DNA of 64,000 nucleotides from an uncultured bacterium (GCA_963736115.1 CAVTNR010000010.1:64674-128673), one strand, 5' to 3'. Positions 4,385-40,315 are shown, numbered from the stretch's first letter. Translations and numbers: made by a program. Notes: a model not told the origin generated them from the letters alone.

Positions 4385-4478
4385 CTTCTCCTCCGTTTGA
4401 CCATTGTGCATCCGATGCATCCTGTTGAAGTCCATTCACCCCGGATCCGCGAGCCGGAAATGCCGAATCCCGCGTTCA

Positions 4479-5129: not shown

Positions 5130-5532
5130 GTTTGTCCTGTTTTACGAAAATCGTCTTATAATACTGAATACGTCCAATTATTGATATTTTGTACGGAAGC
5201 TAATATAAAAAGTTGCATGTAATTTTCCAAATCCTCTTTTTGAGATCCTATGCCGATATTGCAATAATAACAAAAGGATAGGTGGATATTGCGAATTATA
5301 CTAAAATATTCGTTTTTGAAATGGAATATCAGGTCCATTTCCAAATATTTCGAAATCTTCATATATACTTTAAGCCGGTGTTTTAAAGCAGGATGGGATG
5401 TGGGGCAAGGCAAGCAGATTCAATAATCAGAATAAGATTCTAATGAATGTTTACCTGATATGGGATATTCCTGTCATCAAGGCACAACACTTGCATAAAT
5501 CATAAGTATTAAAGAAAATAAGGACACTTCCC
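5130..5532. promoter_or_regulatory. AT-rich divergent promoter/operator region between tetR (-) and the chemoreceptor gene (+)
   Basis: About 400 bp that is markedly AT-rich in a GC-rich context. Perfect palindrome TATTGCAATA at 5257..5266, with a related GATATTGCGAATTATA at 5285..5300. Confidence 0.5.
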
Positions 5533-7875
5533 ATGAATCGCATTCCGACATTGCGCAATAGTACGCTGGCGGGATTCATCCTTCTGCTTTTGCAAACCGC
5601 GATATGCGTCGGTCTCGTCATTTTGAACATCGCGAAAGGAACGACCCTTTCCTGGATTCCAGCCGCGGTGATCGGGTTTCTCGGAGCCGCGGCAGCGGCG
5701 CTGATCTGGCAATACCGCATCCAACCCTCGGAATCCCTTATTCAGGCGGGCCGGACACTTCACAGCAATGACCTGAGTCGGCTCACGCAGGCCATCACCG
5801 ATCTGGGCCAGGGCAATTTTCATGTACGCATCGATTCCACGGCAAACAAGCTCCCGGCCGGGACGGATCCGAGATTCGAGGAATTCAAGTCCATACTCAA
5901 CGACCTCACGGCCGTCATCCACAATGCGGCCGGCGAGTTCAACGAACTGACGGATGTTCCCTGTCTCAGACTCTGTTATGTGGGGTCCGACTCCTTTCTC
6001 GAGGGGCGCCTCTGCGGCGAGGCCATGGCCGCGGCCATCGGCGGCCGGGGTAAAATCTCCATTTCCACCGCCCGGCTCAGCACGCCGAACCTCCTCCTGC
6101 GGAGAAAGGGCTTCATCAGCCTGCTGAAGGAAAAATATCCGGAGATTGAAATCGTCGATATTCATGAGAACAAACGTGAAGAACAAACCACCCGGGAACA
6201 GGCGCTTCGCGTCCTGAACGAATTCAGGGATCTGGCGGGATTCTACATGACCGAAGCGGAGTCTCCGGCCCGCGTGGCCGGCGTCCTGGAGGAATCGGGT
6301 CTTGCGGGAAAGGTGAAAATCGTCGGCCATGACCTTCTTCAGTCCACCATGGAATTCCTGGACAAGGGCGTGATCACCTCCACGATCAGCCAGGACCCGT
6401 ATGCCCAGGGCCACGACCCCGTCATCCACCTGTTCAACCACATCGTGGCCGGGTGGCAGCCCCCCACGCCCCGCATGCTCACGCGCATGGAGGTGGTGGA
6501 CCGGTCCAACTACCATCTGCACTGGAACCCGCAGACGCGCCAGGTTCTGTCCGGAACGGATCCGACGCGGCTGGCGCGGCCCGTGGACCGGCGGCCGGAC
6601 AGGCCCCTGCGCCTCGTGTTTGTGGGCCGTGAAGATTCCGAGTTCTGGGTCCCGCTCAAAATGGGGGCGCTGGCGGCCGCGGAGGAACTGAAACCCTACG
6701 GCGTGACCGTGGAATGGCGTCTGCCCAAGAGTGAATCCGTCAAAGCCAAAACCTCGCACGGGAACCTCGAGGGGACCCGCGAATTCCTGATGCTCGAGGC
6801 CCTCATCCGCGAGCGGGTCGACGGCATCGTCACCTATCTGCCCGAAGCCCGGCTGGTCAAGATTGTCAACCGGGCCGTGGAATCGGGAATACCCGTGATC
6901 ACGACCAACGGCGAACCCTTCAACCTCCGGAGTCTGCTCTACACCGTGAATCACCAGGCGCTGAAACTGCTCGACCTGAGCACGCAGCTTTCCCGGAGCG
7001 CATTTGACGTCAGCGAGTCCACGTCCCGGATCGCGGCGTCCATCGAGCGGATCACGTCCGGCATCGTGTCGCAGGACGATCAGCTGCAGGGAACGGAACA
7101 GGAGCTCGGCGTGGTGTCCGACCACATCGAACGCATCCACTGGGAAGCGGACCGGAGCGCCCGGAGCGCATCGGACACCTGGAGCCAGGTGGAGACCAGC
7201 TCGGGGGCCCTCAAGGAATCCATGGAAAGCTTCAAGTCCATCGTCACGGACGCGGAGGAGGCCTGGAAAACCGTTCAGGGGCTGGCCGAAACGTCCGAGC
7301 GGATCGACTCCGTGATGCAGATGATCGACGAAATCGCTTCGCGCGTCAATGTTCTGGCCTTGAACGCCCAGATCGAGGCGACGCGCGCCGGCGAGGCCGG
7401 CCGCGGATTCATGGTGGTGTCCAACGAGATCCGCAGCCTCTCGCGGAATACGACGGCCGCCACTTCGGAGGTTTCGGAGCTGGTGGAACAGATCAAGGAC
7501 GGCATTGCCGGCGTGCAGGATGCCGTCTCCCAGGAAATGAACAAGATGCGGGAGTCGTCCGAGGTGACGGACCGGGCCGAAAGCACCATGGGCGTCATCC
7601 TGACCTCGCTCGGAGAAAACAAACAGCGGCTTCTGCGTATCGTGGAGGCCGTCGACCAGGCGCGGAAGTCTTCGGGTCAGGCGCGCGAGAACATGGAACA
7701 CATGTCGAAACTGAGCGCCCGGAACACGGAATCGCTGAAGGAGATCAACGCGACCACTGAGGCGATGACCCGCCGGTTTCAGGACGTCGCGGACATGGCC
7801 TCGCTTCTGGAAAAAATCGCGGAAGGCGAGAAAGGGCTACTGGCGAAGTTCTCGCTGAAGCCGGAGGATAACTGA
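5533..7875 (+). CDS. Methyl-accepting chemotaxis protein with a cytoplasmic PBP1 (LacI/RbsB-like) sugar-binding module
   Basis: Two N-terminal TM helices separated by about 5 residues. HAMP-like segment, then PBP1-like blocks (VGSDSFLEGRLCGEAMAAAIGGRGKISI..; KVKIVGHDLLQSTMEFLDKGVITSTISQDPYAQG; LRLVFVGREDSEFWVPLKMGALAAAEEL..VDGIVTY..ESGIPVITTNGE). MCP signalling hairpin follows (NVLALNAQIEATRAGEAGRGFMVVSNEIRSLS). Confidence 0.85.
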   Translation: MNRIPTLRNSTLAGFILLLLQTAICVGLVILNIAKGTTLSWIPAAVIGFLGAAAAALIWQYRIQPSESLIQAGRTLHSNDLSRLTQAITDLGQGNFHVRIDSTANKLPAGTDPRFEEFKSILNDLTAVIHNAAGEFNELTDVPCLRLCYVGSDSFLEGRLCGEAMAAAIGGRGKISISTARLSTPNLLLRRKGFISLLKEKYPEIEIVDIHENKREEQTTREQALRVLNEFRDLAGFYMTEAESPARVAGVLEESGLAGKVKIVGHDLLQSTMEFLDKGVITSTISQDPYAQGHDPVIHLFNHIVAGWQPPTPRMLTRMEVVDRSNYHLHWNPQTRQVLSGTDPTRLARPVDRRPDRPLRLVFVGREDSEFWVPLKMGALAAAEELKPYGVTVEWRLPKSESVKAKTSHGNLEGTREFLMLEALIRERVDGIVTYLPEARLVKIVNRAVESGIPVITTNGEPFNLRSLLYTVNHQALKLLDLSTQLSRSAFDVSESTSRIAASIERITSGIVSQDDQLQGTEQELGVVSDHIERIHWEADRSARSASDTWSQVETSSGALKESMESFKSIVTDAEEAWKTVQGLAETSERIDSVMQMIDEIASRVNVLALNAQIEATRAGEAGRGFMVVSNEIRSLSRNTTAATSEVSELVEQIKDGIAGVQDAVSQEMNKMRESSEVTDRAESTMGVILTSLGENKQRLLRIVEAVDQARKSSGQARENMEHMSKLSARNTESLKEINATTEAMTRRFQDVADMASLLEKIAEGEKGLLAKFSLKPEDN

Positions 7876-13168: not shown

Positions 13169-13221
13169 AAACCGGCTTTCGGATTCCGCCGCTCCATCGC
13201 GGAAAATCCGAAAGCCGGTTT
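13169..13221 (-). terminator. Strong terminator hairpin ending the TBDT/giant protein/PorV-like unit
   Basis: Perfect 17-bp stem AAACCGGCTTTCGGATT / AATCCGAAAGCCGGTTT with a 19-nt loop. On the minus strand it is followed by ATTTGTAT. It lies 75 nt after the stop at 13296. Confidence 0.7.
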
Positions 13222-13295: not shown

Positions 13296-14312
13296 TCAAA
13301 ATCCGATTCCGACCGTGAATTTCTGGATGTCGTTCAGGCGCCCGAATTCGTGATACGCGTAATCGATGGTCAGGCGGACGCCGCGTCCGACGGAATATTG
13401 AAGACCCGCGCCGACGCTCAACCCCTCCTCAGAATCCTCCGCGAAAAGCGACTTGTACCCCGCCCGGATCGACACCATGCGGTCAAAAACGTATTCACAG
13501 CCCACGTTGACGCTTTCCACGTCGTCGTTCGGATGCAGCGCGTCCACCGCCAGGATGAGATTGCTCCTCCCGTATCCCTTCAGCACATCCGCCGAAACGC
13601 CGACCCGGAACAGCAGGGGAAGGTCGAAGGCGTCCGTCTGGAAGTAAGCCGGGATGTTCTCATTGTTCCCTGTGACCGTCGGGTCCGGATCCTTCTGCGT
13701 CTGCATGTCCCGTCCGCCCAGCCGCATTTTCGTTCCGTAGTTGGTGACGCTCATGCCGATCTTCATGCCGTGAAACTGCGTGTCGAACAGTGCGCCGAAG
13801 TCCAGCGCCGCGCCCTTCGCCGCGGAATGGTAGATTTTCTCATGGATGAATTTCCCCGACAGGCCGATGGAAAACCGGTCGGTCAGATTCCGGGCATAGG
13901 AGAGACCGAACGCGAAACTCCCGGCACCGAACATCTCACCGGTGCCGTCCGGCTCCAGTATCGTCGTCCGCTCCATCTCATCCATGGTCTGGAACTGGCC
14001 GCTCACGCCGATGGCGCCGATGTTGCCGAGATTCATCGCCACCGCCGCGTAACTCATGCGGATGTCCGCGAACCACCGGGCGTGGCTGAAAACAGCCTCG
14101 TTTCCACTGATCCTCGCCAACCCGGCCGGATTCCAGTACATGGCCGTGGCGTCCTCGACCACCGAGACGTACGCGCTGCCCATTGCCACGGCCTGCGCGC
14201 CCACGTCCACTTTCAGCAGCGGTACCGCCGTCGTTCCGGCCTTCGTGACCTGTTTCGCCCCGAGTCCGGTTGCCGCGGCGACCGCCAGCAGGATGCACAA
14301 TCCTTTTCTCAT
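13296..14312 (-). CDS. PorV/PorQ-like outer-membrane beta-barrel (T9SS-associated, FadL-like)
   Basis: Signal peptide, then the signature GTTAVPLLKVDVGAQAVAMGSAYVSVVEDATAMYWNPAGLA. Alternating beta-strand pattern; C-terminal ...FTVGIGF. SD AAGGAGA. Confidence 0.7.
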   Translation of the reverse strand: MRKGLCILLAVAAATGLGAKQVTKAGTTAVPLLKVDVGAQAVAMGSAYVSVVEDATAMYWNPAGLARISGNEAVFSHARWFADIRMSYAAVAMNLGNIGAIGVSGQFQTMDEMERTTILEPDGTGEMFGAGSFAFGLSYARNLTDRFSIGLSGKFIHEKIYHSAAKGAALDFGALFDTQFHGMKIGMSVTNYGTKMRLGGRDMQTQKDPDPTVTGNNENIPAYFQTDAFDLPLLFRVGVSADVLKGYGRSNLILAVDALHPNDDVESVNVGCEYVFDRMVSIRAGYKSLFAEDSEEGLSVGAGLQYSVGRGVRLTIDYAYHEFGRLNDIQKFTVGIGF

Positions 14313-14379
14313 CGTCCAGTCTCCTTGGTTGTTTCCTGGAGACGGGGTCCGGTCCGGCCGGAACCCCGTTCCGGACCGC

Positions 14380-17300
14380 TCACTTGATCACCGCGAATTT
14401 GCCGATTTTATTTCCCAGTTTGCCCGCATCCACGTGGTACACATAGACGCCGAAGGCGATGGACAGCTGGTCCCGGGTCAGCATGTCCCAGATTTCCGTG
14501 CCGTCGCTCAGACTGGGCGTGTCATGTTCGAGGGTGGCCACCAGCTGACCGCTGGAGCTGTAGATCCGGATCGTGCACACGGGCGGCAGGTGGGTGAAAT
14601 GGATCTGACGTTCCCCACGCCCGTCCGCGTACGGATTGGTCGGTTCCCAGCCGTTCGCCACGATGTAGGGATTCGGCACAACCCGGATGTCGTCCAGAGA
14701 GGCCTTCGCGGCCGGCAGGTCCAGCGCCTCTCCGTGCATCGTGAATTCGAACACGTCCCGCGACAGGAAGGGTTTGAACATGCGGATGCGGAGCGTGTCG
14801 CCCATGCCGGGCTTTCTGCGGGTGTCGTCGTCCTGGCTGCGCTTCATGGAGACGGACAGCGCGGGCCGGAGTGTGTCGGCCTCGGAGGGATTCAGGATGA
14901 GGATTTCGTCCTGCTTGGTCTTCGAGCGGGAGAACTCCCCGTCACCGCCGTCGGCGTCCAGGAAGCCGAAGGGCAATCGTTCTCCCGAAACGGCGTCCAG
15001 AACCAGAAAATTGACATCCTTGGCCGCCAGCGCCCGTCCTTTCCGGAAGCAGGGAACCGCGGTGTCGAGCACCGCGGCGCTGTCGCCGAAAATGATGTCG
15101 ATGTCGCGGGAGATCGGGCTTTCCGCCTCCAGCCGGTAGAAGTACGGCGCCACGCTCGGAACGAATATTTCCGCGTGGTTGTATTTCGTCCGGGCGGTGT
15201 CGATCGCGGATTCGGCCTCATTCCGCAAGGACAGCTCGAATCCATGGATCATGGGGAGTTTGACCTCCAGACCGGCCGGTTTCAGGCGTCCAACTAGAGT
15301 GTCGGGAGAGGCGGGATTCGTCACATCGACGAGACTGAGGTTCCGGGTGTACACGGTGTCCGGCGCGTTCGCGACGACCGTCATGGTGTCCTCGAACGAG
15401 ACGCGGTAAATATGACCGTCCCGGACCGCGGCCGGATCGATCAGTTCCAGCGTCACATCGCCCGAGGTGGTGCCGCCGGGCAGGAGATGCGGAATATCGG
15501 CGCGGCTGGGCACAAAGCCCGCGGACGGGGCCTCCGGACGGACCACGACCACATTGGAGCCTTTTTCCATGACCTCGCCGTTCTGACCGATGGAGATGAA
15601 TTTGGTGCACTCGGTGGGCGGAATCCTCTTTTCCGCGTCCCCGTGGTCATAGGCGGTGACGGCGTAGTAATACTGGTACCCGTTCACGGCCGTGGTGTCG
15701 GTCCAGGAATGCCGGAGTCCGGTGTCATTTCCCAGATCAAACAGAATCCCCTTCACATCGACCGTGGCGTACCCGCTGATTCCATTTTTCAGATCAAACT
15801 GGGCAACGGGTTTGCGGTAGGCGTAGGACCCCTGGCCGTCCGTGATCTGGGCCATGTCTCTCCAGGCCGCGTCCGTGGAGCGGTAGATCCGGTATCCTTC
15901 GAAATCCTTTCCCGTGATGGGGTCTTCCGAATCCTCCGCCCAATCGTCCCAGAACAGCGTGACGCGGTTGTTTCCACGCACCGCCTGAAGGGTCGGAATG
16001 TTCGGCGCGCGGGAGAAGTTGTAATTCTCGGCGTACGCCGTGTTCATCCAATGCTTGTTGACGGTCAGTTCGTCCAATGTAACCGCGAGCACGAGACCCA
16101 TGGAAAACCTCTCGACTTCGCCCGGGGCCAGCGGGAAATAGCCGGATCCCCAGAAGAGCTCGACATTGACGTTTTCGAGTCTTCCGTCCAGTTTTCCCGG
16201 CCGGCATTTTTCCCATGTGGCCTCATCGTCATCGTGGGCATACGTCGCCCAATCGTAGAGGTTGAAGCTGGTCAGACCCAGCATGTCCGTTTCGTGGATG
16301 TCGGTCTTGTCGAAATGGGGTTCTCCGGCGGTCGGCCTTCCGTCCTTTTCGCCCGGGTCGCTCGTGAAGGGCGCGCCGTCCTGGCCGAGGTCGTCCAGCG
16401 TGACGTCCCAGTCGCCGTCGTTGTCGATGCTGTCGTCCCGCTGCTCGTCGATGAGCGGGTTGTCCCGGCCTTCGCCCGTGAAGTAATCGATGTATTTGAG
16501 GCCGGTGTACAGGTAACGATGGCTCACGTTCGGCGGGGCTCCGAACCGGGTGCCGTTGTTTTCATCGATCAGTCCGTTCAGGTTGTCGTCTATAAGGTTG
16601 TTCTCGACTTCCTCGCGCTTATATCCCGGATAGATCTTGATGACCTGGTCCTCGTAATGGATCAGAAGCGTGTCATCCGGCATGGTCACCTGGGTGCGCC
16701 CGAAGGTCCTGTAGTCGATGAGGATGATCGGGTCGCCGGCCAACAGCACCTTCGCCCGGAACATCGCCTCGGTGATGACGGGGCCGCTGCCGTTCACGCC
16801 GTCGCCGTCATTATCGATGCCGTCCACCGGGTTGCCCGGGCTTTCGAGGAACGCGCCCCCGATGTAACCCACGGGCGAATAGCCCCCGCCGCCGATATTG
16901 TCATTGTCCCACATGTACGCCATGTCCTCCGCCAGGTCATAGGCGCCGCAATCATCGCCCGAATCGCCCGCGGTCGACGTATCGCCGATATTGTTGCCGA
17001 TCTTGTACCCGAAGGCCATTTTATCGTGATGATAGGTGCCGATGTTCTCAATGTCAAACAGCAGAAACAGGACATTCTGCACCAGCAGGTTGGACCATTG
17101 AAAGCTCCGGACCCACATGCGCATGCCCAGACCCTTCCGGCTGAGGTCGCGGCTGTCCGGGAAGAAGTTGAATTCCTTCTTGTTATAATCATCGGACACG
17201 AAAAAAGCCTCTTCGTCCGCGTTCAACTGGCCCTTGCCGAAATAGCCGTTCCACTTGCCTCCCCAGCCCGGATCCACCGGGTCGTCCGACCTGTCAGGCC

Positions 17301-17790
17301 AGTAAGCCGGCCAGGAGGCCGGCCATTTGCTCATGGCGAGAGAGTCGCCGGGGTGTTTGGCGAAGCCGGGCAGGGGCAGGAATGTCCACCATTCGCCCGT
17401 GACGGGATCGGCGTCTCCCCTGGAATAATTGCCGGAACTCGTCGGCAGGGAAGGATCCCCGTTGCTCTGTACCGTGGAATTGATGTGCTTCATTTCGCCG
17501 TTGGCGTCGATCACCTCGGAAACCACGAATTCGTCGCCGTCGATGAGCCACAAATGGCCCGAATTGATCGGCCATTCGCCCGCGATGGCGTCGGACGACC
17601 CGCTCGGATGGGACGCGTTGGTTCCGTAGGTGCCGTCGTTGAAGAAGGTGGTGCGGATCTGATTCCCCGCATGCAAGCCCATTTTCATGTACTGAAAATC
17701 GCCGTGCAAACCCTCCATCGCCGATTGGGCCGACAGCATGGGTGCCAGACCCATGAACAGAATGCCAGCCAGTGCGGATTTAAGTTTCAT
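14380..17790 (-). CDS. 1136-aa secreted protein of unknown function with acidic Ca-binding-type loops, an FN3-like module and a variant T9SS-like C-terminal domain
   Basis: ORF 14380..17886. The ATG at 17790 (AAGGAG upstream) gives MKLKSALAGILFMGLAPMLSAQ. Acidic loops DGIDNDGDGVNG, IDDNLNGLIDENNG, DDSIDNDGDWDVTLDDLGQDG. FN3-like GYRIYRS...YQYYYAVTAYD. Tail VVPNPY...IRIYSSSGQLVATL...GVYVYHVDA...KFAVIK. Confidence 0.8.
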   Translation of the reverse strand: MKLKSALAGILFMGLAPMLSAQSAMEGLHGDFQYMKMGLHAGNQIRTTFFNDGTYGTNASHPSGSSDAIAGEWPINSGHLWLIDGDEFVVSEVIDANGEMKHINSTVQSNGDPSLPTSSGNYSRGDADPVTGEWWTFLPLPGFAKHPGDSLAMSKWPASWPAYWPDRSDDPVDPGWGGKWNGYFGKGQLNADEEAFFVSDDYNKKEFNFFPDSRDLSRKGLGMRMWVRSFQWSNLLVQNVLFLLFDIENIGTYHHDKMAFGYKIGNNIGDTSTAGDSGDDCGAYDLAEDMAYMWDNDNIGGGGYSPVGYIGGAFLESPGNPVDGIDNDGDGVNGSGPVITEAMFRAKVLLAGDPIILIDYRTFGRTQVTMPDDTLLIHYEDQVIKIYPGYKREEVENNLIDDNLNGLIDENNGTRFGAPPNVSHRYLYTGLKYIDYFTGEGRDNPLIDEQRDDSIDNDGDWDVTLDDLGQDGAPFTSDPGEKDGRPTAGEPHFDKTDIHETDMLGLTSFNLYDWATYAHDDDEATWEKCRPGKLDGRLENVNVELFWGSGYFPLAPGEVERFSMGLVLAVTLDELTVNKHWMNTAYAENYNFSRAPNIPTLQAVRGNNRVTLFWDDWAEDSEDPITGKDFEGYRIYRSTDAAWRDMAQITDGQGSYAYRKPVAQFDLKNGISGYATVDVKGILFDLGNDTGLRHSWTDTTAVNGYQYYYAVTAYDHGDAEKRIPPTECTKFISIGQNGEVMEKGSNVVVVRPEAPSAGFVPSRADIPHLLPGGTTSGDVTLELIDPAAVRDGHIYRVSFEDTMTVVANAPDTVYTRNLSLVDVTNPASPDTLVGRLKPAGLEVKLPMIHGFELSLRNEAESAIDTARTKYNHAEIFVPSVAPYFYRLEAESPISRDIDIIFGDSAAVLDTAVPCFRKGRALAAKDVNFLVLDAVSGERLPFGFLDADGGDGEFSRSKTKQDEILILNPSEADTLRPALSVSMKRSQDDDTRRKPGMGDTLRIRMFKPFLSRDVFEFTMHGEALDLPAAKASLDDIRVVPNPYIVANGWEPTNPYADGRGERQIHFTHLPPVCTIRIYSSSGQLVATLEHDTPSLSDGTEIWDMLTRDQLSIAFGVYVYHVDAGKLGNKIGKFAVIK

Positions 17791-17809
17791 GGTCTGCTCC
17801 TTGCCCTTG

Positions 17810-20764
17810 TTAAAATCCGACCGACAAACCGGCCTGAACCTGGCGCGGCGCCGAATACCAGCTCGGCTGTTTGGCCCATTCCTCAACCGTGCCGATCCGC
17901 GAGGCGACGTATCCCTGCTTCTCCGGATCGATGGTGGAGGTGACGTCCGCCTTTTCCGTGTCGCCGTATACGCTCAGCGCGTCGCGGAAATCGAGGAGAT
18001 TGTACACGTTGACGAACGCGTTCATCCGGAGCTTTCCGACCGTGATCCCGCGGTTCACGGTCAGGTCGATGTTCCGCCGCATGGGCGTGTATTCGCTGTT
18101 CTGCAGGAGGCCTTTGGAGGCGGCGCTGCCGAACACTTCCCCGGAGGGGAACGAGGGGGTATACGGCGTGCCGCTGGTCAACTGCCCGATCGCCGAGAAC
18201 AGCCACTGCCCGAGCTGATAACGGACCAGCGCGTTCAGGGTATGCGGCTGGTCGAAGCCCATCGGGATCAGCGCGAGCCGCTTCTGCTCGTGGTTGGCGT
18301 AGGCGGTGTAGGCGTCGGTCGGGCTGGTGTAGGTGCCCTCCGCCTTCTGGTAGGTGTAATCCACCCTCACTGACCAATTCCTGGACATCCGCTTGTCAAG
18401 CTTCACCGTGACACCACGGACATTTTCATAGTCCAGATTCATGAACATCACGTACTGGACGGCGGGGTTGACCGTCGGCTGGAGCGGTGTCTGGCCGACC
18501 CAGTCGCGCACGTCGCGGTAGAACAGCGATATGTCCACGCCCAGATCGTTCGACAGCTGCTGCTGCAGGCCGATCTCATACTGAACCGTCCGCTGGGGTT
18601 TGAGTTCCGCGTTCGACAGGGTGAAGTTGCCGCCGCCCATGCCCAGCTTGAAGTCGGGGCTGCTGTACAGATACTGGAAATCGGGGATCTGGAAGAAATG
18701 ACCGTAGGAAAAGTGGATCACGCCGCGGTCGGTGATGGGGAAAGACAATCCCAGACGCGGGCTGACCGCGTAGCTGGCCTCGGCCTTCTTCTCCATGAGC
18801 GCCCTGCGCTCGGCCACGGAGAGCGAATCCGTCGTGCCCGGCCGGAAAGTGTGCTCCGGTTTCATGGGCGTGTAAATGCTCGGGTCCGTCGGATCGGCCG
18901 GGACCACGCCTTTGGAGTCGAAATAATCGAACCGGAGGCCGAGGTTGACGATCAGATCCTTGAGCTCGATCTTGTCCTGGGCATAGGCCGAAAACTCGAA
19001 GGGATTCCGGGTGTAGAGCAGCCGCTGCACGCTCGAAACGCCCGGAACGTCCGGTTCGAACGGGATGACGGCCTCGCTCGTCCCCGGAACGGTTTTGGGC
19101 GTGATCGTGTAGGAATCGAGCGTCAACTCATGAAACCGGGCCTCGACGCCCGACTTGATCTGGTGGACCCGGTTGATCTGGCTGGTCAGGTCCAATTTTC
19201 CGACCCAGTAAGCGGTGCTCCGCTCGTAATGGTTCATCAGATTGCCGCTTTTATTGAAACTGTAGCTGGTCGGCGCCGAATTGGAATCGGGGCTGACGTA
19301 CCCGCTCGGGCCGGCTGGATCAGGGATAAAATCGTAAGTCCGCCTGTCGGACCGGATGGCCTGTAACCGGGCCTGGCCTTCAGCCGTGTTCGGATCGAAT
19401 TCGAAACCCGTCAAACCGGCATCGGCATCGGGATACACGCGAACGAAGTAATTCGGCTTCGTGGTGGGATCCTCAAAGAGGAATTGCCTGTATTCGTTGT
19501 AGAAATGGTTGACCCGCAGTTCATAAAAAGTTTTAGCCGAGAGCATGTGGTTCAGCTCCAGGATGTGCGTCAAGCCGGTACCCTTCTGCTGGGGGATGCC
19601 GTCCGGCGCATAGGTGTACGCCTTGTTGTAAATCCGGTCATTGTTCCAGCGGTTCCCGAACACGTTGTATTTGACGGTGATGTTCCGGCTGAGCCGGTAG
19701 ACCAGTTTCCCCTGGAGGCTGACCCGCTCGTAGGGATTCATGGAGACGAGCGAACTGTCTCCGGCTGTGCCGGCCGGCGTGAACCACTTCCGGCCGTAGA
19801 GATATCCCTCGTTCGAAAAGAAGCGGCCGTTGACGAAAAACGACAGTTTGTCCCCGGCGAAGGGAACCGGACCATTCAGGTTGGCTTCGAAATTATAAAC
19901 GGGATTGAAACGCTTCAGCGGATTTTCCGTCACGCCGTCCGCGCGCAGGACACCCCGCGCGTCGGAAACGACGTTGACCCGCTTCAACAGGGAGAATTGT
20001 TCGCCGCCGCCGAGATAGTCCCCCACGTATCCGCTCACGTCCCCCGTCAGCTTGTTCCCGCCCTCCTTGGTGATGACCTTCACGATGCCGGACATGGCCT
20101 GCCCGTACTCGGCGTTGAACGTGCCGCTGACCACCTGCAGCTCCTGGATAGCCGAATTTTCGACCGTGACGCCGCTCGATCCGTTGAACACGTCCGTGGT
20201 GGATACGCCGTCCACCCAGTACGCGATCTCGCTCGAACGGCCGCCGCGGATATGCACCTGTCCGCCGGTTCTCACGACACCGGCCTGCAGCGCCAGAATG
20301 TCCTCCATGCTCTGCACGGGCAGGTCCCGGATCTCATCGGCACCCACGCTGGACAGCGACGACGTCATGTCTTTCCGGACCAGGGGCCGTTCGGCCGTTA
20401 CCGTGACCGCCTCTCCGGATTCAATCACCGCAGGCGATAGTTCAGCGTCGCAGGCCGCGGTCATGTCGATGGACACCCGGAGATCCTCGGTCACCCGGGT
20501 CTGATACCCCATCATGCTGATCCGGACGCTGACCATGCCGGGCGGCACGTTGAGGATCATGTAATAGCCGTCCATGTCGGTCACCGCGCCGGCGGAAGTG
20601 CCGACGACCAGCACGTTGGCTCCGATCAACGGCTGCCGGGTGGAGCGGTCGACCACGGTGCCCGCGATCTTGCCGGTGGTGCCCGCGGCCAGACGGCCCG
20701 CGACCGAGATCAGGCAGACCCCGAGGATCGCCGCAACAATCCGGAGCTGGCGGTTACGCTTCAT
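17810..20764 (-). CDS. TonB-dependent outer-membrane transporter with N-terminal carboxypeptidase-regulatory-like domain (SusC-like architecture)
   Basis: ORF 17810..20797. The ATG at 20764 follows GAGGAG. Sequence has GKIAGTVVDRSTRQPLIGANVLVVGTSAGAVTDMDGYYMILNVPPG, a plug region (SSVGADEIRDLPVQSMEDILALQAGV) and the barrel terminus ...QAGLSVGF. Confidence 0.9.
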   Translation of the reverse strand: MKRNRQLRIVAAILGVCLISVAGRLAAGTTGKIAGTVVDRSTRQPLIGANVLVVGTSAGAVTDMDGYYMILNVPPGMVSVRISMMGYQTRVTEDLRVSIDMTAACDAELSPAVIESGEAVTVTAERPLVRKDMTSSLSSVGADEIRDLPVQSMEDILALQAGVVRTGGQVHIRGGRSSEIAYWVDGVSTTDVFNGSSGVTVENSAIQELQVVSGTFNAEYGQAMSGIVKVITKEGGNKLTGDVSGYVGDYLGGGEQFSLLKRVNVVSDARGVLRADGVTENPLKRFNPVYNFEANLNGPVPFAGDKLSFFVNGRFFSNEGYLYGRKWFTPAGTAGDSSLVSMNPYERVSLQGKLVYRLSRNITVKYNVFGNRWNNDRIYNKAYTYAPDGIPQQKGTGLTHILELNHMLSAKTFYELRVNHFYNEYRQFLFEDPTTKPNYFVRVYPDADAGLTGFEFDPNTAEGQARLQAIRSDRRTYDFIPDPAGPSGYVSPDSNSAPTSYSFNKSGNLMNHYERSTAYWVGKLDLTSQINRVHQIKSGVEARFHELTLDSYTITPKTVPGTSEAVIPFEPDVPGVSSVQRLLYTRNPFEFSAYAQDKIELKDLIVNLGLRFDYFDSKGVVPADPTDPSIYTPMKPEHTFRPGTTDSLSVAERRALMEKKAEASYAVSPRLGLSFPITDRGVIHFSYGHFFQIPDFQYLYSSPDFKLGMGGGNFTLSNAELKPQRTVQYEIGLQQQLSNDLGVDISLFYRDVRDWVGQTPLQPTVNPAVQYVMFMNLDYENVRGVTVKLDKRMSRNWSVRVDYTYQKAEGTYTSPTDAYTAYANHEQKRLALIPMGFDQPHTLNALVRYQLGQWLFSAIGQLTSGTPYTPSFPSGEVFGSAASKGLLQNSEYTPMRRNIDLTVNRGITVGKLRMNAFVNVYNLLDFRDALSVYGDTEKADVTSTIDPEKQGYVASRIGTVEEWAKQPSWYSAPRQVQAGLSVGF

Positions 20765-21046
20765 AGCCTGACTCCTCTGCTTTAAGGTGTTTGGCATAAC
20801 GCACTGGTTCAGAAAAATGCATGGAATCCGGAAATCGGATTCTTCGAGAACGCGATTTTTTTCGAATGAGACACACGAGGGAGGAAACCACTTCCACTCA
20901 ACGGGACCGTATCAGGCCGGCCATTCGTTCCGACAGGCGGGTCCATCAGGGAAGACCGCCCGCCGTCCGGAATCAGTCAGCGGGAAAACCCGCGTTTTCC
21001 GCAATCGCCTCCGGATTCCGTTCACTTCCGCGGATGAAGCGGATCA

Positions 21047-21104
21047 GAAACGAAACAGCGGCGCACGTCACAAATGACTGATTCGTACGCCGCTGTTCCG
21101 TTTC
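21047..21104. other. Long imperfect hairpin in the untranslated gap upstream of the TBDT gene
   Basis: GAAACGAAACAGCGGCG (21047..21063) pairs with CGCCGCTGTTCCGTTTC (21088..21104): 16 of 17 bp, 24-nt loop. Confidence 0.4.
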
Positions 21105-21263
21105 ATCGGCTTGTTCCACCCGGGTTCTCGGGCGGTATGCCGGACCGCGATCCGCACGGCCCAATGGATTTGACCGAAACCTCGAACCGTCCGCGATAGC
21201 GGTTTCCCGGTCACCCGGCCAGCCACTTGTGACGCACTTCGAAGGTGCGTCGCAAGCAGATGC

Positions 21264-22292
21264 CTACTTCATCAACATCATCTTCTGCGTCAGGGTCTGC
21301 CTGCCGTCGATCTGCATCCTGCACATATACATCCCGCCCGCGAGATTCGAAGCGTCGAATTGAACGCTGTGCTGACCCGCATCCCGGACTTCATCGAGGA
21401 GTGCGGCCGCCTGACGGCCGAGCATGTCGAATACATCGATCGTGACTCTGGATCTTTTATTGAGATTGAAGGGAATGGTCGTCCCGGGGTTGAACGGATT
21501 CGGATAGTTCTGTAGAAGGCCGAATCCCGCGGGAAGATCGGCGAAGGGTTGATCGTCAACGCCGACGGTGGGATCCTGCAGGGAGAGAAAATCGACCTCT
21601 TCGGCGCTCAGGGCTTTGTTGAAGATGTTGCACTCGTAAATGAACCCCCTCCACGTGGCATCGCCGTCGTAGCCGCTCTTGGCCAGGTAGCAGAACAGCG
21701 GCTCCAGCGCGTCGATGGTGTTGGTCGAGGCGAGGTCGGTCCGGCCCGTTTCCACGCCGTCGACGAACAGGGCGATCTGCGATTCGTTGATGGTGGCCAC
21801 CATGTGATGCAGATTGCTGTCGTCGTATTCCGGCCCGTCCGCGCCGGTTTCACCCTGATAGGGCGTGTCCGCCCAGCACGAAATGGCGGCTCGGCTCTTG
21901 TCGTCCCCTCTGACGGGAGTCAGAAAGAAGCCGTTGTACCCCATGCCGTTCTTCGATCCCCCGAAATAGAAGAACATGTGATAGCTGGCGTTCATGCCTT
22001 CAAAGGGCAGGAACCAGATCTCGACGGAAAACTCGGTGAGGGAGTTGAGTCCGACCGCTTCGGCATCCATTTCCATGTACTGGCCCAGATCGGCCGTGAC
22101 CAGCGCGCCGTCCTCGACGATCGCATCTCCCTGGAGGATGCCGTGCGCGTCGCCCACTGCGTCATTGGCGGTTCCGTCGTCGAATGTCCAGGAGTGAATG
22201 AGATTTTCGGTGCCCGGATCGACGCCCTGGGCCGAGGCGCCGATCGCCAGCATCATCAGACACGGCAGCAGGAACAATAGCATTCGTTTCAT
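21264..22292 (-). CDS. LamG/concanavalin-A-like lectin-domain protein with T9SS C-terminal sorting domain
   Basis: Signal peptide MKRMLLFLLPCLMMLAIGASAQ. LamG-like pattern (WTFDDGTANDAVG...SVEIWF...HHMVATINESQIALFVDGVE...IYECNIFNKALSAEEV). Tail LLQNYPNPFNPGTTIPFNL...GMYMCRMQIDG...KMMLMK. Confidence 0.8.
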   Translation of the reverse strand: MKRMLLFLLPCLMMLAIGASAQGVDPGTENLIHSWTFDDGTANDAVGDAHGILQGDAIVEDGALVTADLGQYMEMDAEAVGLNSLTEFSVEIWFLPFEGMNASYHMFFYFGGSKNGMGYNGFFLTPVRGDDKSRAAISCWADTPYQGETGADGPEYDDSNLHHMVATINESQIALFVDGVETGRTDLASTNTIDALEPLFCYLAKSGYDGDATWRGFIYECNIFNKALSAEEVDFLSLQDPTVGVDDQPFADLPAGFGLLQNYPNPFNPGTTIPFNLNKRSRVTIDVFDMLGRQAAALLDEVRDAGQHSVQFDASNLAGGMYMCRMQIDGRQTLTQKMMLMK

Positions 22293-22788: not shown

Positions 22789-25700
22789 TTACTGTATATA
22801 AAGTAGTTTCCGGACAGTCGAGAATCCGTCGGAAGCAGTCAGTCTGCAAAAGTAGACGCCGCTGGCCAGACCAGAAGCGTCCCATTGGAAAGAATGCACG
22901 CCGGGTTCAAAATCCCGTGAAACCAGTGCGGCCGCCTCACGGCCCAGAATGTCATACACTTTAATCGTAATGGACGCGGGCCTGGGCACATGAAATACAA
23001 GGGTCGTCATAGCATTGAACGGATTCGGGAAATTCTGCGCCAGCCTGAATTCAATCGGAGCCGCCGGACGCCCCGGTTCCGTTACCGAGACGGGGATGTT
23101 GTCATGACCGGGATTTCCGTGAATACCGGCCGAGGCCGTCCAGTTTCCCGCGTCCTCCGGATCCCCGGATGGATCCGGCTCCCGCGGCACGAGCGAAAAC
23201 CCGTCTCCGTCCGCCGAACGGGGCCACGGATACCGGTCATTGTACCGAATCCGGAGGATCGTGTCCCCCGATGCCGCGCTCAGCGCGATTGTTTCTCCGC
23301 TGTTGTCCAATTGCCCCTCATATTCGCCGAAAGCCTGGAATCCGTACCGGCCGGAGAAGGCATTGCGGTTGGAGGCCAGCACGATGAAGTTTTCCGGGCC
23401 GATCGCCGTTTGGACCGGGAACTCGAAAGAAACACCCGCCGAAAAAAACATCCCGGACAAATCCAGCGTTTCATGTCCGATATTCTTGAACTCGATGAAC
23501 TCATATTCCCCGCTCTCGTTCGCGGTGTCTCCCAGGGGGTGGTAGTGCAGTTCGGTGATCCGGAGGTTTTCCGTGCCGTTCAAAATCCGGAATTCCGCTT
23601 CCTGACCGGCGCTCCAGTCCATTCCGTCCAGCACGCGCGCCCGGACGCAGGTTGTTTGATGGATCACCAGCGGTTCCGTGTACAAGCGCGCCTTTTCGGA
23701 CAATCGGGCCGGGTTCGATGAAACGCCCGCCGTCAGCTCCGCCCCGATCAGAAAATCGGAACTGTTTGCCCCGTTATTCAGGCCCTGGATTGCCAGCAGA
23801 TTCAAGCCGGGCACCAGCAGATCGACGAATCCGGAGACGTCGAAAGGCTCCCATGCCTCGGCTTCGTGGTCCGCGGTGGCCGCGGCATTCCACGCCGGAC
23901 CGGCCGGCGCGTTGGCTTCGGCGACCTTCACACCGTTCAGCCAGGCCGCAAAACCGTCGTCGTAACGCATCCGGAGGGTCAGGACATTGAGGCTGTCGAT
24001 CCATGACGGCTCCGCGGAAAAGGGTATCCTCACGCAGCAGCTGGTTCTCTTCTGAACCATCTCGGCGGCCACGTTGATGCCGATCGTGTTTTCATACCCC
24101 TGCCCCCTTTCGTATCCCACATTTCCGGAGCCGGATCGCCACGCCGAATCGTCGAATCCCGCGGACAGCCTCCAGCCGGCCGAGACCGCCGCCTGGGGAA
24201 CGATCACCTTTTTAGACGCGCTTTCCGCGATGAGCGCCGTCATCCGGGTCTCCGCGTCCAGGGGCAGAACCGGATCGGTCCCGTCCGTCGTGTAATGTAT
24301 CTGACCTCGCGGCGCAGTCATCGCGAGTTGAAATCCCGGTTGAACCCGCCGGCTTTCCGAGCTGAATTCCGGCGGTTGGACCCGCGAAACCCATCCCCTG
24401 GCCCGCAATTGGCCCAGTACGCGTTCCGTGCGATCCGGAAAAAACTGTTCGAGGATACGGTTGATCTCCGGAAGCCAGGCATTGTCGCGCGTAAAGGCGG
24501 GTTCGCGCTTGGAATCGCCCCAGCGTGCGGATTCCGCGATGATGGCCAGATCGATCATTTTCTTCCGGGCCAGGAATCGATCGATATTCGCCTGAGGTGT
24601 CAGCGCGCCGCCGTTGAAAAAATGCCTGTGGACGCGATCGGCGAACCGGGACCGGTAAAGGGGATTCTCGCAGAGTTTCTGATGGAACCACTGCGGGTTC
24701 GATTCCAGAAAAACGGATCCGCCGGGAAACGGCCCGGTCCGATCGTCTCCGAAAGACTGCGCGCCCAGCGTGTGCTCCGCATCATGCCGGATGAAGATAA
24801 AACCCCGGTTTTTTTCCCGGTGATTGTAAATGGCATAAAAATTATTGGGCTCCTGATTGTTGCGAAATCCGGAAACCGGGCCATCCGCCTCGCCGGTGAT
24901 GAAAATAGTCAGCATGAAATCGATCAGATCGTCCACGTCCAGCAGAACCTCGTATTCCGGGTTCCGCGTGCCGTCCGGATTCAGACCCTGCACGTGATGG
25001 TAGGCCTCGGTCGTCGCGAAACCCGCCATGGAGGCTTCCCACAGCCGCCTCCAGGCGTCCAGGGTTCCGTCTGTGGCTTCGATGTCGAAAGCGCCCATAT
25101 ACCCGGCATCGACCTTGATCACGTCGTAGTCCTCCGGGTCGCCGCCGAAATAGGAAGCCGCGTACGAAGCCTCCGGACGCTCCTCGGTTTCATACAGCCC
25201 CCAGTAGGTGCCGTTGATATACAGATGGGCGGCCCGGCTTCGCGTATAGGGCCGGCCCATGTCGCGCTGCATGTCCCTGCAAAAGACGTCGCGGATCATC
25301 GTGTTTTTACTCGGGTCTTCCGCGCCGTAGCTCCAGGAATAATTCATGGCCGTGCGCAGATCCACGTTGTCGAATGCGTCGACGCCTTCGTCGCCGAACA
25401 GGGGAACCTTCAGTTTGCCTTCGCCGTATTCCTGACGAAAAAACCAGCGGAAGGCGCGTTTGGGATTGGTGTTGTTCCGGCTCCATCCGCCCCGGATGCG
25501 CACGCCGCAATTGATCTGAAAGCCGTCCGTTCCGTCCGGATGAATCAATTCGACTGAGCACGGACGCTCCCATTCCCTGCCGTGTTCCAGCGCATTGACG
25601 TAGATTCCGGTCCGCGGGTCGAAAAGATCCTTCAAATCCATGACCATGGAAAACGTGGGAAGTTCGGTCAGCGCCGCGACGATTTTATCCTTGTACAGAC

Positions 25701-26277
25701 CGCTGTTGCAGACTTCCGGATCCATTCCATAGCTGATGGCCTGCCCGTTGGCGTTGTTCAGGCCGAGCCAGCCGGGCCCCGGCAGAGCGCCGTCCGGGGA
25801 AAGCTCCACCGCCCGATCGGCGAACAGATAGGTATGGGTCTTGACCCTTGTCGCGGCTGTATCCGCGGCCATGGCCACGGCTCGAACGCAGAAACCGGGC
25901 GCCCGGTCCCGCCCCCGCGTATTCGCTGGATCCACGCGGACCGCAACGGGCGATGTCCCGGAAAAAGCGGTGGACGACGTGACCGGATCGGTTCCGTCCA
26001 GGGTGTACCGGATCGTCAAACCGGGAGGCGTGGTGGAGAGCGTCAGATCGAAATTGTCCCGGTAAAAACCGCGATCGGGATCGAAGTGCAGAACGACGTC
26101 TTCCGTGTCCTGGCCGTACGACAGACACGCGAAAAGGAGCAGCAGGCCGGCTGCACGGTTCCTGAAATCGATCACTTCGACATCCCTTCCGATTGACTTC
26201 GATGCGTCATCAACCGCTTCTCCCGTCCGCGGTTCCATTCCCGGGTCGGCGATGCGCTCCGGTGTTTCCGCGCGCAC
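22789..26277 (-). CDS. CotH-family protein with CHB_HEX_C-like and lamin-tail (LTD) domains and a T9SS C-terminal sorting domain
   Basis: CotH core RDVFCRDMQRDMGRPYTRSRAAHLYINGTYWGLYETEERPEASYAASYFGG. LTD LRITELHYHPLGD...EYEFIEFKNIG. Tail LAQNFPNPFNAMTTLVFHV...GVYFCRLTA...KLLYIQ. The true start is probably internal, e.g. GTG at 26175 giving (M)IDFRNRAAGLLLLFACLSYGQ. Confidence 0.8.
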   Translation of the reverse strand: MRAETPERIADPGMEPRTGEAVDDASKSIGRDVEVIDFRNRAAGLLLLFACLSYGQDTEDVVLHFDPDRGFYRDNFDLTLSTTPPGLTIRYTLDGTDPVTSSTAFSGTSPVAVRVDPANTRGRDRAPGFCVRAVAMAADTAATRVKTHTYLFADRAVELSPDGALPGPGWLGLNNANGQAISYGMDPEVCNSGLYKDKIVAALTELPTFSMVMDLKDLFDPRTGIYVNALEHGREWERPCSVELIHPDGTDGFQINCGVRIRGGWSRNNTNPKRAFRWFFRQEYGEGKLKVPLFGDEGVDAFDNVDLRTAMNYSWSYGAEDPSKNTMIRDVFCRDMQRDMGRPYTRSRAAHLYINGTYWGLYETEERPEASYAASYFGGDPEDYDVIKVDAGYMGAFDIEATDGTLDAWRRLWEASMAGFATTEAYHHVQGLNPDGTRNPEYEVLLDVDDLIDFMLTIFITGEADGPVSGFRNNQEPNNFYAIYNHREKNRGFIFIRHDAEHTLGAQSFGDDRTGPFPGGSVFLESNPQWFHQKLCENPLYRSRFADRVHRHFFNGGALTPQANIDRFLARKKMIDLAIIAESARWGDSKREPAFTRDNAWLPEINRILEQFFPDRTERVLGQLRARGWVSRVQPPEFSSESRRVQPGFQLAMTAPRGQIHYTTDGTDPVLPLDAETRMTALIAESASKKVIVPQAAVSAGWRLSAGFDDSAWRSGSGNVGYERGQGYENTIGINVAAEMVQKRTSCCVRIPFSAEPSWIDSLNVLTLRMRYDDGFAAWLNGVKVAEANAPAGPAWNAAATADHEAEAWEPFDVSGFVDLLVPGLNLLAIQGLNNGANSSDFLIGAELTAGVSSNPARLSEKARLYTEPLVIHQTTCVRARVLDGMDWSAGQEAEFRILNGTENLRITELHYHPLGDTANESGEYEFIEFKNIGHETLDLSGMFFSAGVSFEFPVQTAIGPENFIVLASNRNAFSGRYGFQAFGEYEGQLDNSGETIALSAASGDTILRIRYNDRYPWPRSADGDGFSLVPREPDPSGDPEDAGNWTASAGIHGNPGHDNIPVSVTEPGRPAAPIEFRLAQNFPNPFNAMTTLVFHVPRPASITIKVYDILGREAAALVSRDFEPGVHSFQWDASGLASGVYFCRLTASDGFSTVRKLLYIQ

Positions 26278-40258: not shown

Positions 40259-40315
40259 AATCTTCCCCTTTTCGGTGACTACCGCTTCCTCATTCTTCAT
40301 GCCGCGGGTTTACCC

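Follow-up and report, generated by a model that had tools for sequence, protein, structure and literature searches.

Within a stretch of 64,000 nucleotides from an uncultured bacterium (GCA_963736115.1 CAVTNR010000010.1:64674-128673; the whole of this stretch is called the window below), three large open reading frames (ORFs) run in the same direction on the minus strand and fill positions 13296..20764. They encode a TonB-dependent transporter (TBDT), a secreted protein of 1136 residues that we refer to as the giant, and an outer-membrane barrel of the PorV/PorQ family. We have very little doubt that this trio is a conserved functional unit. Going beyond this, we consider it somewhat probable that this outer-membrane module, conserved and inherited together in phyla of the Fibrobacteres-Chlorobi-Bacteroidetes (FCB) group, captures and imports glycans in the manner of a polysaccharide utilization locus (PUL) without SusD, and that the giant is anchored on its barrel as PorZ is anchored on PorQ.

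Conservation and layout of the unit

Relatives of the giant were collected by a scan of one genome per species, which gave at least 263 confirmed relatives. The best 80 of these were taken; they come from KSB1, Calditrichota, Ignavibacteria, Marinimicrobia, Rhodothermales/Balneolaceae, Krumholzibacteria and Stahlbacteria, and the carriers of the trio include metagenome-assembled genomes (MAGs) assigned to Ignavibacterium album, Melioribacter roseus and the genus Caldithrix. Six-frame ORFs of 81 related loci were then searched with the three window proteins. The order TBDT-giant-barrel was found in 56 of the 81 loci, and in four more once frameshift-split genes had been joined; one further locus has a frameshift-split TBDT followed by the giant. 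TBDT and giant alone were present in 10 loci and giant and barrel alone in 6, consistent with a contig end inside the unit, and variants of the order (TBDT-barrel-giant or giant-TBDT) were seen in 4 loci, with the genes still adjacent. In no case among the 81 loci was a partner gene missing despite there being room for it on the contig. A reverse search that started from the barrel gave the same picture, in that all three homologues on long contigs sit in a trio of TBDT, a protein of ~1140 aa and barrel. The synteny that an earlier note on this DNA had made a touchstone of its proposal was therefore present in every related locus examined, whether the search began with the giant or with the barrel.

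The three proteins also diverge together. For 49 complete trios, the pairwise distance matrices correlate with r = 0.86 for TBDT and giant, 0.77 for giant and barrel and 0.83 for TBDT and barrel; none of 999 permutations reached the observed r, and the mean divergence of the three proteins is nearly equal (0.60-0.62). Shared species history contributes to these correlations, but the pattern is still in line with a module that has been inherited and duplicated in its entirety. Paralogous trios are indeed seen, with two copies on one contig and up to three in one MAG. As a separate observation, tandem genes of the giant family occur within one unit at L032:4989-11845 (where one is frameshift-split) and at L072:601-6416. 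Some 90%-identity clusters from Marinimicrobia hold 125-216 member sequences, and one of them is also present in the TARA collection.

In the window itself, the gap between TBDT and giant measures 19 nt and that between giant and barrel 67 nt, and a Shine-Dalgarno (SD) site lies 7-9 nt 5' of each ATG (GAGGAG for the TBDT, AAGGAG for the giant and AAGGAG for the barrel). Both the coordinates and the sites agree with the earlier note, which had described three co-directional genes so spaced, each with its own SD. That note had also placed an untranslated gap of 466 nt upstream of the unit; this figure holds only when it is counted from an alternative in-frame ATG of the TBDT further upstream at 20797, and not from the SD-supported start at 20764, from which the leader is 499 nt long (Table 1). 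A sigma-70 promoter scan of the minus strand of this leader gave no convincing match, a result that is uninformative in that these phyla may use other types of promoter. At the other end of the unit, the perfect hairpin named in the earlier note was recovered together with its T-rich tail: the terminator region (91 nt) has a folding energy of -53.3 kcal/mol (z = -6.0), and none of 200 shuffled sequences was as stable. A simple terminator scan misses this hairpin, the loop being longer than 8 nt.

The 67-nt spacer between giant and barrel (14313..14379, minus strand) contains a G+C-rich inverted repeat, CGGTCCGGAACGGGGTTCCGGCCGGACCGGACCCCG, which could tune how strongly giant and barrel are expressed relative to each other.

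Table 1. Positions of the trio, of the regions of the giant and of associated elements, counted from the first letter of the window.
Feature	Position	Strand	Remarks
TonB-dependent transporter	17810..20764	-	984 aa; same length in public gene calls
Giant (1136-aa secreted protein)	14380..17790	-	ORF translation
Giant, residues 33-595, beta-supersandwich (galactose-mutarotase-like)	16006..17694	-	AF2 model and Foldseek
Giant, residues 596-725, FN3-like beta-sandwich	15616..16005	-	AF2 strands; motifs DFEGYRIYRS and YYYAVTAYD
Giant, residues 790-1025, beta-rich, most variable part	14716..15423	-	identity 0.37; AF2 secondary structure
Giant, residues 1030-1136, variant T9SS type-A-like C-terminal domain	14383..14703	-	VVPNPY...CTIRIY...GVYVYHV...KFAVIK
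PorV/PorQ-family barrel	13296..14312	-	338 aa
Non-coding leader, probable promoter region	20765..21263	-	499 nt 5' of the TBDT from start 20764
Intrinsic-terminator-like hairpin closing the unit	13169..13221	-	perfect 17-bp stem and T-rich tail
Probable accessory gene, LamG-like lectin-fold protein with canonical T9SS C-terminal domain	21264..22292	-	342 aa; PF13385 63.5 bits, PF18962 40.2 bits

The barrel and the tail of the giant

The assignment of the barrel is given by its match to the PorV-family model NF033709, with 206.6 bits against a cutoff of 90; the match runs from residue 27 to residue 338 and covers model positions 1-326 of 326. PF19572 is matched as well, at 35.1 bits (cutoff 27). 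We considered whether the protein might be a generic FadL barrel and reject this, since the FadL/OmpP1/TodX model PF03349 (Toluene_X) scores only 20.0 bits against a cutoff of 29.7, over a stretch of 56 residues. The only sequence match in the PDB is PorV of Flavobacterium johnsoniae (6h3i_F, E 4.4e-7), there are no FadL chains among the PDB sequence matches, and the relatives of the barrel are named 'PorV/PorQ family protein' by NCBI. The third gene is thus related to PorV/PorQ and is not a generic FadL/OmpP1, as the earlier note had anticipated. The barrel stays below the equivalog cutoffs for PorV (NF033710, 80.9 against 250), PorQ (NF033711, 94.9 against 220) and PorV2 (NF052325, 97.4 against 325), and its length is that of PorQ and not that of PorV. 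It forms a distinct subfamily of the PorV/PorQ family.

The last ~105 residues of the giant form a tail that resembles the C-terminal domains (CTDs) by which proteins are sorted to a type IX secretion system (T9SS). Against the type A model TIGR04183 the tail reaches 15.6 bits, with 16.7-22.7 bits for three relatives and a cutoff of 23. PF18962 (cutoff 27) does not match the window tail and gives 12.8-16.6 bits in two relatives, and the type B model PF13585 (CHU_C) gives 13.4-17.7 bits (13.4 for the window tail) against a cutoff of 27, so that the tail does not qualify as type B. Weak matches are found to the CTD of PorU and, in relatives, to the CTD of PorZ also. By eye, the tail follows the pattern PNP...G.Y.Y...K..(I/V)K, with an insertion of ~15 residues after NPY. 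A hidden Markov model (HMM) built for this tail subtype gives at least 89 bits on all giants in the loci examined and less than 27 on the canonical CTDs of neighbouring proteins. With a type A score near the threshold, and set apart from the canonical CTDs by the subtype HMM, the tail is in keeping with the earlier note, which had it resembling the T9SS sorting domain but differing from the canonical NPFNP tails. It represents a distinct and highly conserved CTD subtype, and we suggest that such conservation (0.68) is more in keeping with a durable contact between proteins than with a signal that is discarded.

The tail is also found outside the giant family. A second type of trio adjoins the giant-type trio at L082:11891-19020 and L086:11982-19020, and consists of a LacI gene, a TBDT of 1064-1067 aa, a middle protein of 711-717 aa and a PorV-family barrel. 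The middle protein matches no Pfam family and has in common with the giant only the FN3-like part and the variant tail; the tails of the 717-aa protein and of the giant are 42% identical (E 3e-13), and the subtype HMM gives 35-40 bits on the former. Because the 717-aa protein in this second trio shares the tail, we conclude that the variant tail, a private PorV-family barrel and a TBDT travel together regardless of the body of the protein that carries the tail. The canonical-CTD proteins in the neighbourhood are without a private barrel of this kind.

The pairing could also be read differently, with the barrel serving as an export shuttle only: it would extract the giant, with its divergent tail, from the SprA translocon, and the giant would then either be cleaved and linked to lipopolysaccharide (LPS) or be released. 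It would act as a glycan-binding protein that is free or only loosely attached, no stable complex being formed with barrel or transporter. PorV is such a shuttle, and particular substrates have PorP/SprF-like barrels deployed for them (PMC10202324), SprF being comparable as the partner of SprB. A private carrier is plausible in that the tail of the giant differs from the canonical CTDs encoded in the same window, and barrel and giant are always adjacent. What a shuttle leaves unexplained is the tie of the TBDT to this pair, which holds in essentially all loci, and the co-divergence of all three proteins. Anchoring accounts at least equally well for the strong conservation of the tail and for a barrel of PorQ-like size, and the roles of shuttle and anchor are not mutually exclusive; we regard a barrel that acts purely as a shuttle as unlikely, and prefer the reading in which the giant stays anchored on it.

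The giant, the transporter and their carbohydrate setting

The translation of the giant begins with a signal peptide of the signal-peptidase-I type and has no lipobox cysteine. The protein belongs to no Pfam (E<=0.01) or NCBIfam family and has no sequence relative in the PDB; a PDB profile search with it returned matches to EspB only, at chance level. Neither the giant nor the barrel matches a SusD/RagB family in Pfam or NCBIfam, and the giant is all-beta. The statement of the earlier note that the second gene does not encode a SusD/RagB-like lipoprotein is in accordance with these searches, and a sequence match to a characterised enzyme family, which would have told against its proposal, was not obtained. 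There is likewise no TSP_3 match in Pfam at E<=0.01, only the general DxDxDG pattern of calcium loops being present. The family is nonetheless large, with members of ~1100-1300 aa: one homologue search gave more than 2342 members among the matches listed and a second search 3903, and when 1.84 billion representatives were searched with a profile, 1056 clusters (50% identity, E<=1e-30) were recovered. All named members are 'hypothetical', save one that NCBI calls 'T9SS type A sorting domain-containing protein'.

Structure prediction gives a clear result for the N-terminal domain (N-domain), which was modelled with AF2 from 126 sequences at a pLDDT of 93.7 and a pTM of 0.91. Its best Foldseek match is the supersandwich N-terminal domain of dextran dextrinase (9ju0, E 9e-6, probability 1.0). 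Further matches are to the N-domains of members of the glycoside hydrolase (GH) families GH94 (cyclic glucan synthase, cellobiose phosphorylase), GH116 and GH149, and to the periplasmic P1 domain of YidC; the matches to enzyme N-domains span E-values from 9e-6 to 0.05. The model thus suggests that the N-domain is folded like those N-terminal domains of glycan enzymes that bind sugar. Since the TM-scores are low, the query having large insertions and the targets extra domains, we claim only the fold class. Calcium loops of the DxDxDG type and a small beta insert are built into this supersandwich. The model of the full-length giant (25 sequences, pLDDT 69) is uninformative, and Foldseek returned for it generic strings of FN3/Ig domains with TM-scores below 0.12 (insulin receptor; PorZ at rank 11).

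Three acidic loops (DGIDNDGDG, DDNLNGLIDE and DDSIDNDGDWD), which the earlier note had mentioned along with the signal peptide, are present and nearly invariant across the family; the invariant columns cluster in loops of the DxDxDG type (LESPGN..DGIDNDGDG, DE.RDD.IDNDGDWD, DD.G.DG and GEP.FD.TD..E.D). A second conserved cluster is rich in Trp and Tyr (GEWPINSGH, W.W.P..WPD, DPGW.G.WNGYFGK). The FN3-like module and the C-terminal beta-sandwich, also postulated earlier, can both be seen in the AF2 model; the former has no match to Pfam fn3, and the full-length Foldseek search gives FN3 arrays. Mean identity to the window residue (alignment A1) ranges from 0.62 to 0.75 over the N-domain, stands at 0.68 for the CTD and drops to 0.37 in residues 790-1025, which makes this stretch a candidate for the specificity region. 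There is no counterpart of an (alpha/alpha)6 or other catalytic domain, the remainder of the protein consisting of beta-sandwiches only in the AF2 model.

These features bear on the idea that the giant is itself an enzyme that cleaves glycans with the help of calcium and belongs to a family not yet described. It would be a hydrolase or lyase built on the supersandwich, placed at the surface, and would make oligosaccharides for the transporter instead of serving as a non-catalytic binding lid, which we think quite unlikely. Foldseek does give weak matches to a GH174 fucanase, to a rhamnogalacturonan lyase of polysaccharide lyase (PL) family PL26 and to another polysaccharide lyase; the invariant acidic clusters are predicted to bind calcium, which many lyases use, and the window holds pectin- and arabinan-type carbohydrate-active enzymes (CAZymes). 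However, the sequence of the giant matches no family of CAZymes or other enzymes, its best structural matches are N-domains that are not catalytic themselves and whose catalytic (alpha/alpha)6 partner it lacks, and the invariant acids sit in DxDxDG loops that are typical of structural calcium sites. In addition, the same N-domain occurs beside CAZyme sets for starch, xylose, mannan and pectin, which argues against a single bond specificity.

The transporter begins with a signal peptide and has a CarboxypepD_reg-like domain at its N-terminus, besides a Plug and a barrel of the 22-strand type, with Pfam scores of 65.7 bits for PF13715, 42.8 for PF07715 (cutoff 23.9), 111.3 for PF00593 (cutoff 27) and 52.2 for PF25183. 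A candidate TonB box, VTVTAERP, was spotted by eye just N-terminal to the Plug. The SusC/RagA model TIGR04056 gives 67.9 bits against a cutoff of 368.25 and is matched at model positions 2-207 only; the PDB sequence match to RagA is similarly restricted to residues 33-238. The description of the transporter as SusC-like in the earlier note therefore needs to be divided: the CarboxypepD_reg domain, Plug and barrel stand, whereas membership of the SusC family does not. The TBDT is SusC-like in its N-terminal architecture only and falls outside the SusC/RagA family.

We also considered that the TBDT might export or insert the giant, with the PorV-like barrel as acceptor. In Myxococcus, the protease PopC depends for its secretion on Oar, a TBDT of the CarboxypepD_reg type. 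The match of our transporter to PF25183, its CarboxypepD_reg N-terminus and the co-divergence of the three genes would suit such a role; yet a folded protein of 1136 aa with a T9SS-like tail has an established route in these phyla, the window encodes canonical T9SS cargo, and nothing indicates that transporters of this kind let through a protein as large as the giant. We hold an Oar-like function to be very improbable.

To describe the surroundings of the trio, 237 flanking ORFs of at least 250 aa were surveyed across the 81 loci. The commonest neighbours are proteins with canonical T9SS tails (44 of 237), several of them with domains like carbohydrate-binding modules (CBMs; CBM20, X25, DUF5689), followed by PPIC-type isomerases resembling SurA, usually directly 5' of the TBDT (22), GH13 amylases (22), LacI regulators (12), GDSL/TPR proteins (10), FG-GAP proteins, at least one of which has a CTD (9), and GH3 enzymes (5). 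Sugar ABC permeases and binding proteins, GH94 enzymes and CBM9-type CTD proteins are also found near trios. One trio adjoins genes for LacI, GH3, xylulokinase and xylose isomerase; another adjoins a CBM9 protein with a CTD, and a related locus has a GH26 protein with a CTD in its vicinity. The context of the trio is carbohydrate use, with different polymers at different trios, as is the case with PULs, and the co-occurrence with CAZymes that the earlier note had proposed to check is borne out by flanks in which genes for GH13, GH3, LacI, sugar ABC transporters and CBM proteins with canonical T9SS tails dominate. In M. roseus, the genes Mros0761-0759 of a starch operon have been named 'SusC, SusD, SusE' (PMC3534657), and may be either true Sus homologues or a trio under other names; the trio of the M. 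roseus MAG (order TBDT-barrel-giant, locus L027) adjoins a CBM9 protein with a CTD and not the GH13 genes of this starch operon.

This survey also speaks to a non-glycan role, in which the module would import peptides, metals or a cofactor, or the giant would be a surface-coat or adhesion protein, and the CAZyme neighbours would be coincidental. Annotation at JGI labels the transporter 'outer membrane receptor protein involved in Fe transport', its best partial matches in NCBIfam, none of them near the cutoff, are receptors for haem and siderophores, and genes without a link to sugars, among them those for GcpE and GDSL/TPR proteins, flank the trio in some loci. The receptor matches, at 3- to 20-fold below the cutoffs, reflect generic barrel similarity, however; carbohydrate genes dominate the flanks, LacI-type regulators directly adjoin several trios, and the fold of the N-domain is carbohydrate-associated. 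We judge a non-glycan function to be improbable, a little more so than an enzymatic giant, and continue with glycan capture and import as the preferred reading.

The unit is often larger than three genes, commonly with a CBM protein bearing a canonical CTD and elsewhere with a SurA-like PPIase. The latter isomerase (~510-600 aa, PPIC-type, encoded 5' of the TBDT, for example at L017:1480-3021, L063:1252-3066 and L001:5294-6835) is present in many trios, and its presence suggests that a chaperone of the periplasm dedicated to the unit forms a fourth component; the window is without such a gene. Here, the gene directly upstream of the leader encodes the LamG-like protein of Table 1. This gene precedes the trio in the close relative L084 too, although the other neighbours are rearranged there, and its product may be a fourth member of the unit, an accessory resembling a surface glycan-binding protein (SGBP).

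The window is otherwise a one-strand CAZyme array with GH3, pectate lyase, GH2, GH29, GH39, GH127, GH42, GH31, GH97 and esterases. Three other proteins in it bear a canonical Por_Secre_tail, which agrees with the number of canonical tails reported earlier; these three canonical-CTD proteins imply that the organism has a T9SS. Two cargo proteins of the array are unexplained: a protein of 1162 aa (22789..26277, minus strand) with CotH, a lamin-tail domain, CHB_HEX_C and a Por_Secre_tail, and a protein of 660 aa (38318..40300, minus strand) of which the Por_Secre_tail is the sole recognisable part. At the edge of the array lies a gene for a methyl-accepting chemotaxis protein with a periplasmic sugar-binding sensor of the Peripla_BP_4 type (5533..7875, plus strand), overlapped by a spurious long ORF on the opposite strand. 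The G+C content of the window is ~60% and falls to 51.6% at 4001..6000, around the boundary of a TetR/efflux operon and the start of the chemoreceptor gene.

Proposed mechanism and relation to known systems

Based on the above, we suggest the following course of events. The giant would be exported by Sec, as its signal peptide and the lack of a lipobox indicate, and would then pass the T9SS by means of its variant, type-A-like CTD. We propose that the tail is neither cleaved nor linked to LPS; it would stay on the cognate barrel encoded 67 nt downstream and so fix the giant at the cell surface. There, the calcium-studded N-domain and the variable C-terminal beta domains may bind a glycan or oligosaccharide, which the giant would hand to the adjacent TBDT for import, with first capture and cutting being done by the neighbouring T9SS-secreted CBM proteins and CAZymes. 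Because the N-domain is evenly conserved across differing CAZyme neighbours and residues 790-1025 are variable, we further suggest a division of labour in which the N-domain docks or caps and residues 790-1025 give specificity. In sugar uptake, the giant would then probably act as a functional replacement of SusD. The earlier note had put forward a reading of this kind, which our results support in part: of the four findings that by its own account would have spoken against it, three were looked for (a generic FadL barrel, a lack of synteny, a giant that matches a characterised enzyme family) and none was obtained.

Several observations weigh against this proposal. T9SS core families are absent from the large window ORFs that were scanned, as the earlier note had also remarked, so that dependence on a T9SS is argued from analogy and from the three canonical-CTD proteins nearby, and the tail of the giant lies below the curated cutoffs of every T9SS CTD model. 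The Foldseek TM-scores of the N-domain (0.2-0.33) support a fold class and not a specific binding site. The most conserved residues of the giant are the acids of the calcium loops, which could serve structure or docking and not sugar binding, and the supersandwich is catalytic in some enzymes (mutarotase, and the weakly matching GH174 and PL26), so that an enzymatic giant is possible. Finally, the CAZyme neighbours show a glycan context and not the substrate of this particular transporter.

A wider claim can be put forward only tentatively, and we would sooner doubt it than rely on it: that FCB phyla outside the Bacteroidia (KSB1, Calditrichota, Ignavibacteriota, Marinimicrobia, Rhodothermia) in general import glycans by means of the trio. 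A beta-supersandwich protein delivered by the T9SS would then be held by a private, PorQ-like barrel and would cap or feed a TBDT that is not of the SusC type, as an independently evolved counterpart of SusD; there would be a third, never-cleaved class of T9SS tail that pairs one-to-one with its own barrel, and the second type of trio would mark a whole family of such modules.

Among the known systems closest to the trio are the transporter-lid pairs SusC/SusD (RagA/RagB) and the 'utilisomes' of PULs in Bacteroidota. As in these, a TBDT with a CarboxypepD_reg N-terminus is followed directly by the gene of a large surface protein, and like these pairs the trio lies among CAZymes, sugar regulators and extra glycan-binding proteins and occurs in several paralogous copies per genome. 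The differences lie in the proteins themselves. The barrel of the trio transporter is not of the SusC family, and the giant has neither the fold nor the sequence of SusD/RagB, is not a lipoprotein, is twice the size of SusD, is all-beta and ends in a T9SS-like tail; moreover, a barrel of the PorV/PorQ family is an obligatory third gene. The operational definition of a PUL is an adjacent susC/susD pair; with no susD and a transporter outside the susC family, the locus is PUL-like by its context.

For the barrel and the tail, the closest parallels come from the T9SS itself. The CTD of PorZ remains uncleaved on PorQ and that of PorU on PorV, and cognate PorV-like barrels have been proposed to protect CTDs from cleavage (PMC10202324). 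The trio resembles these pairs in having a PorQ-sized barrel of the PorV/PorQ family together with a surface protein whose type-A-like CTD weakly resembles those of PorZ and PorU. It differs in that its barrel fails the equivalog cutoffs of PorQ and PorV and its cargo is unrelated to PorZ and PorU, and in that the pair shares an operon with a TBDT and has many paralogues beside CAZymes, instead of being a single housekeeping component of secretion. Cargo of type B is anchored by PorP-like barrels (PMC9143113), and PorP/SprF-like barrels of this kind are credited with a part in secretion as well as in anchorage at the surface (PMC9143113, PMC10202324). As with SprB and SprF, where a type B CTD goes with a PorP/SprF barrel, the cargo gene of the trio adjoins the gene of its cognate outer-membrane barrel; in the trio, by contrast, the tail is type-A-like, the barrel is of the PorV/PorQ family and a transporter is part of the unit. 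The principle of a cognate PorV-like barrel that retains an uncleaved CTD has thus been put forward before, both for PorQ-PorZ and for type B cargo with PorP/SprF (PMC10202324, PMC9143113).

Other carbohydrate uptake loci based on a TBDT and without a SusD homologue are known from Cytophaga hutchinsonii (chu_1276-1280) and from the carbohydrate utilization loci containing TBDTs (CUT) of Xanthomonas. In the former, the presence of the surface binding protein is needed more than its binding; CHU_1279 is a protein of 375 aa with two CBMs, and the cluster is confined to a few relatives of Cytophaga (PMC12016534). Its proteins are different from those of the trio, neither a PorV-family barrel nor a variant CTD partner is described for it (PMC12016534), and the trio spans many phyla. 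A further likeness is found in BamG-BamH, where BamG, a 14-stranded barrel of the FadL/PorV fold, holds the surface protein BamH beside BamA via extracellular loops (PMC12578637). In BamG-BamH, as would be the case in the trio, a barrel of the FadL/PorV fold lies against another large barrel and retains a surface protein; BamG, however, belongs to FadL/Toluene_X, BamH is a lipoprotein, and the pair functions in the assembly of outer-membrane proteins and not in nutrient import.

What appears to set the trio apart is that it combines a TBDT glycan locus with a T9SS pair of cargo and barrel, in an unusually wide distribution and with a central protein that is wholly unannotated. We found no published description of it in the literature searched, whose coverage leaves out many subscription journals, so that an earlier mention is possible; the genome papers on Caldithrix and Melioribacter do not mention the trio. 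The idea is directly testable, because MAGs assigned to the cultured species I. album and M. roseus and to the genus Caldithrix carry trios.

Pairs of SusC and SusD serve as the marker by which PULs are found and counted, and for this reason the CAZyme-rich, SusD-poor relatives of the Bacteroidota seem to be without organised glycan uptake. Trios adjoin genes for the use of starch, xylan, mannan and pectin. If the trio is indeed a functional counterpart of SusCD, it would provide a new genomic marker for glycan use in bacteria of sediment, subsurface and ocean, and it would tie the import of nutrients to the type IX secretion system. The principle of PorQ-PorZ, in which a barrel keeps hold of an uncleaved tail, would then, if our reading is true, no longer be confined to a single housekeeping pair and would apply to a large paralogous family.

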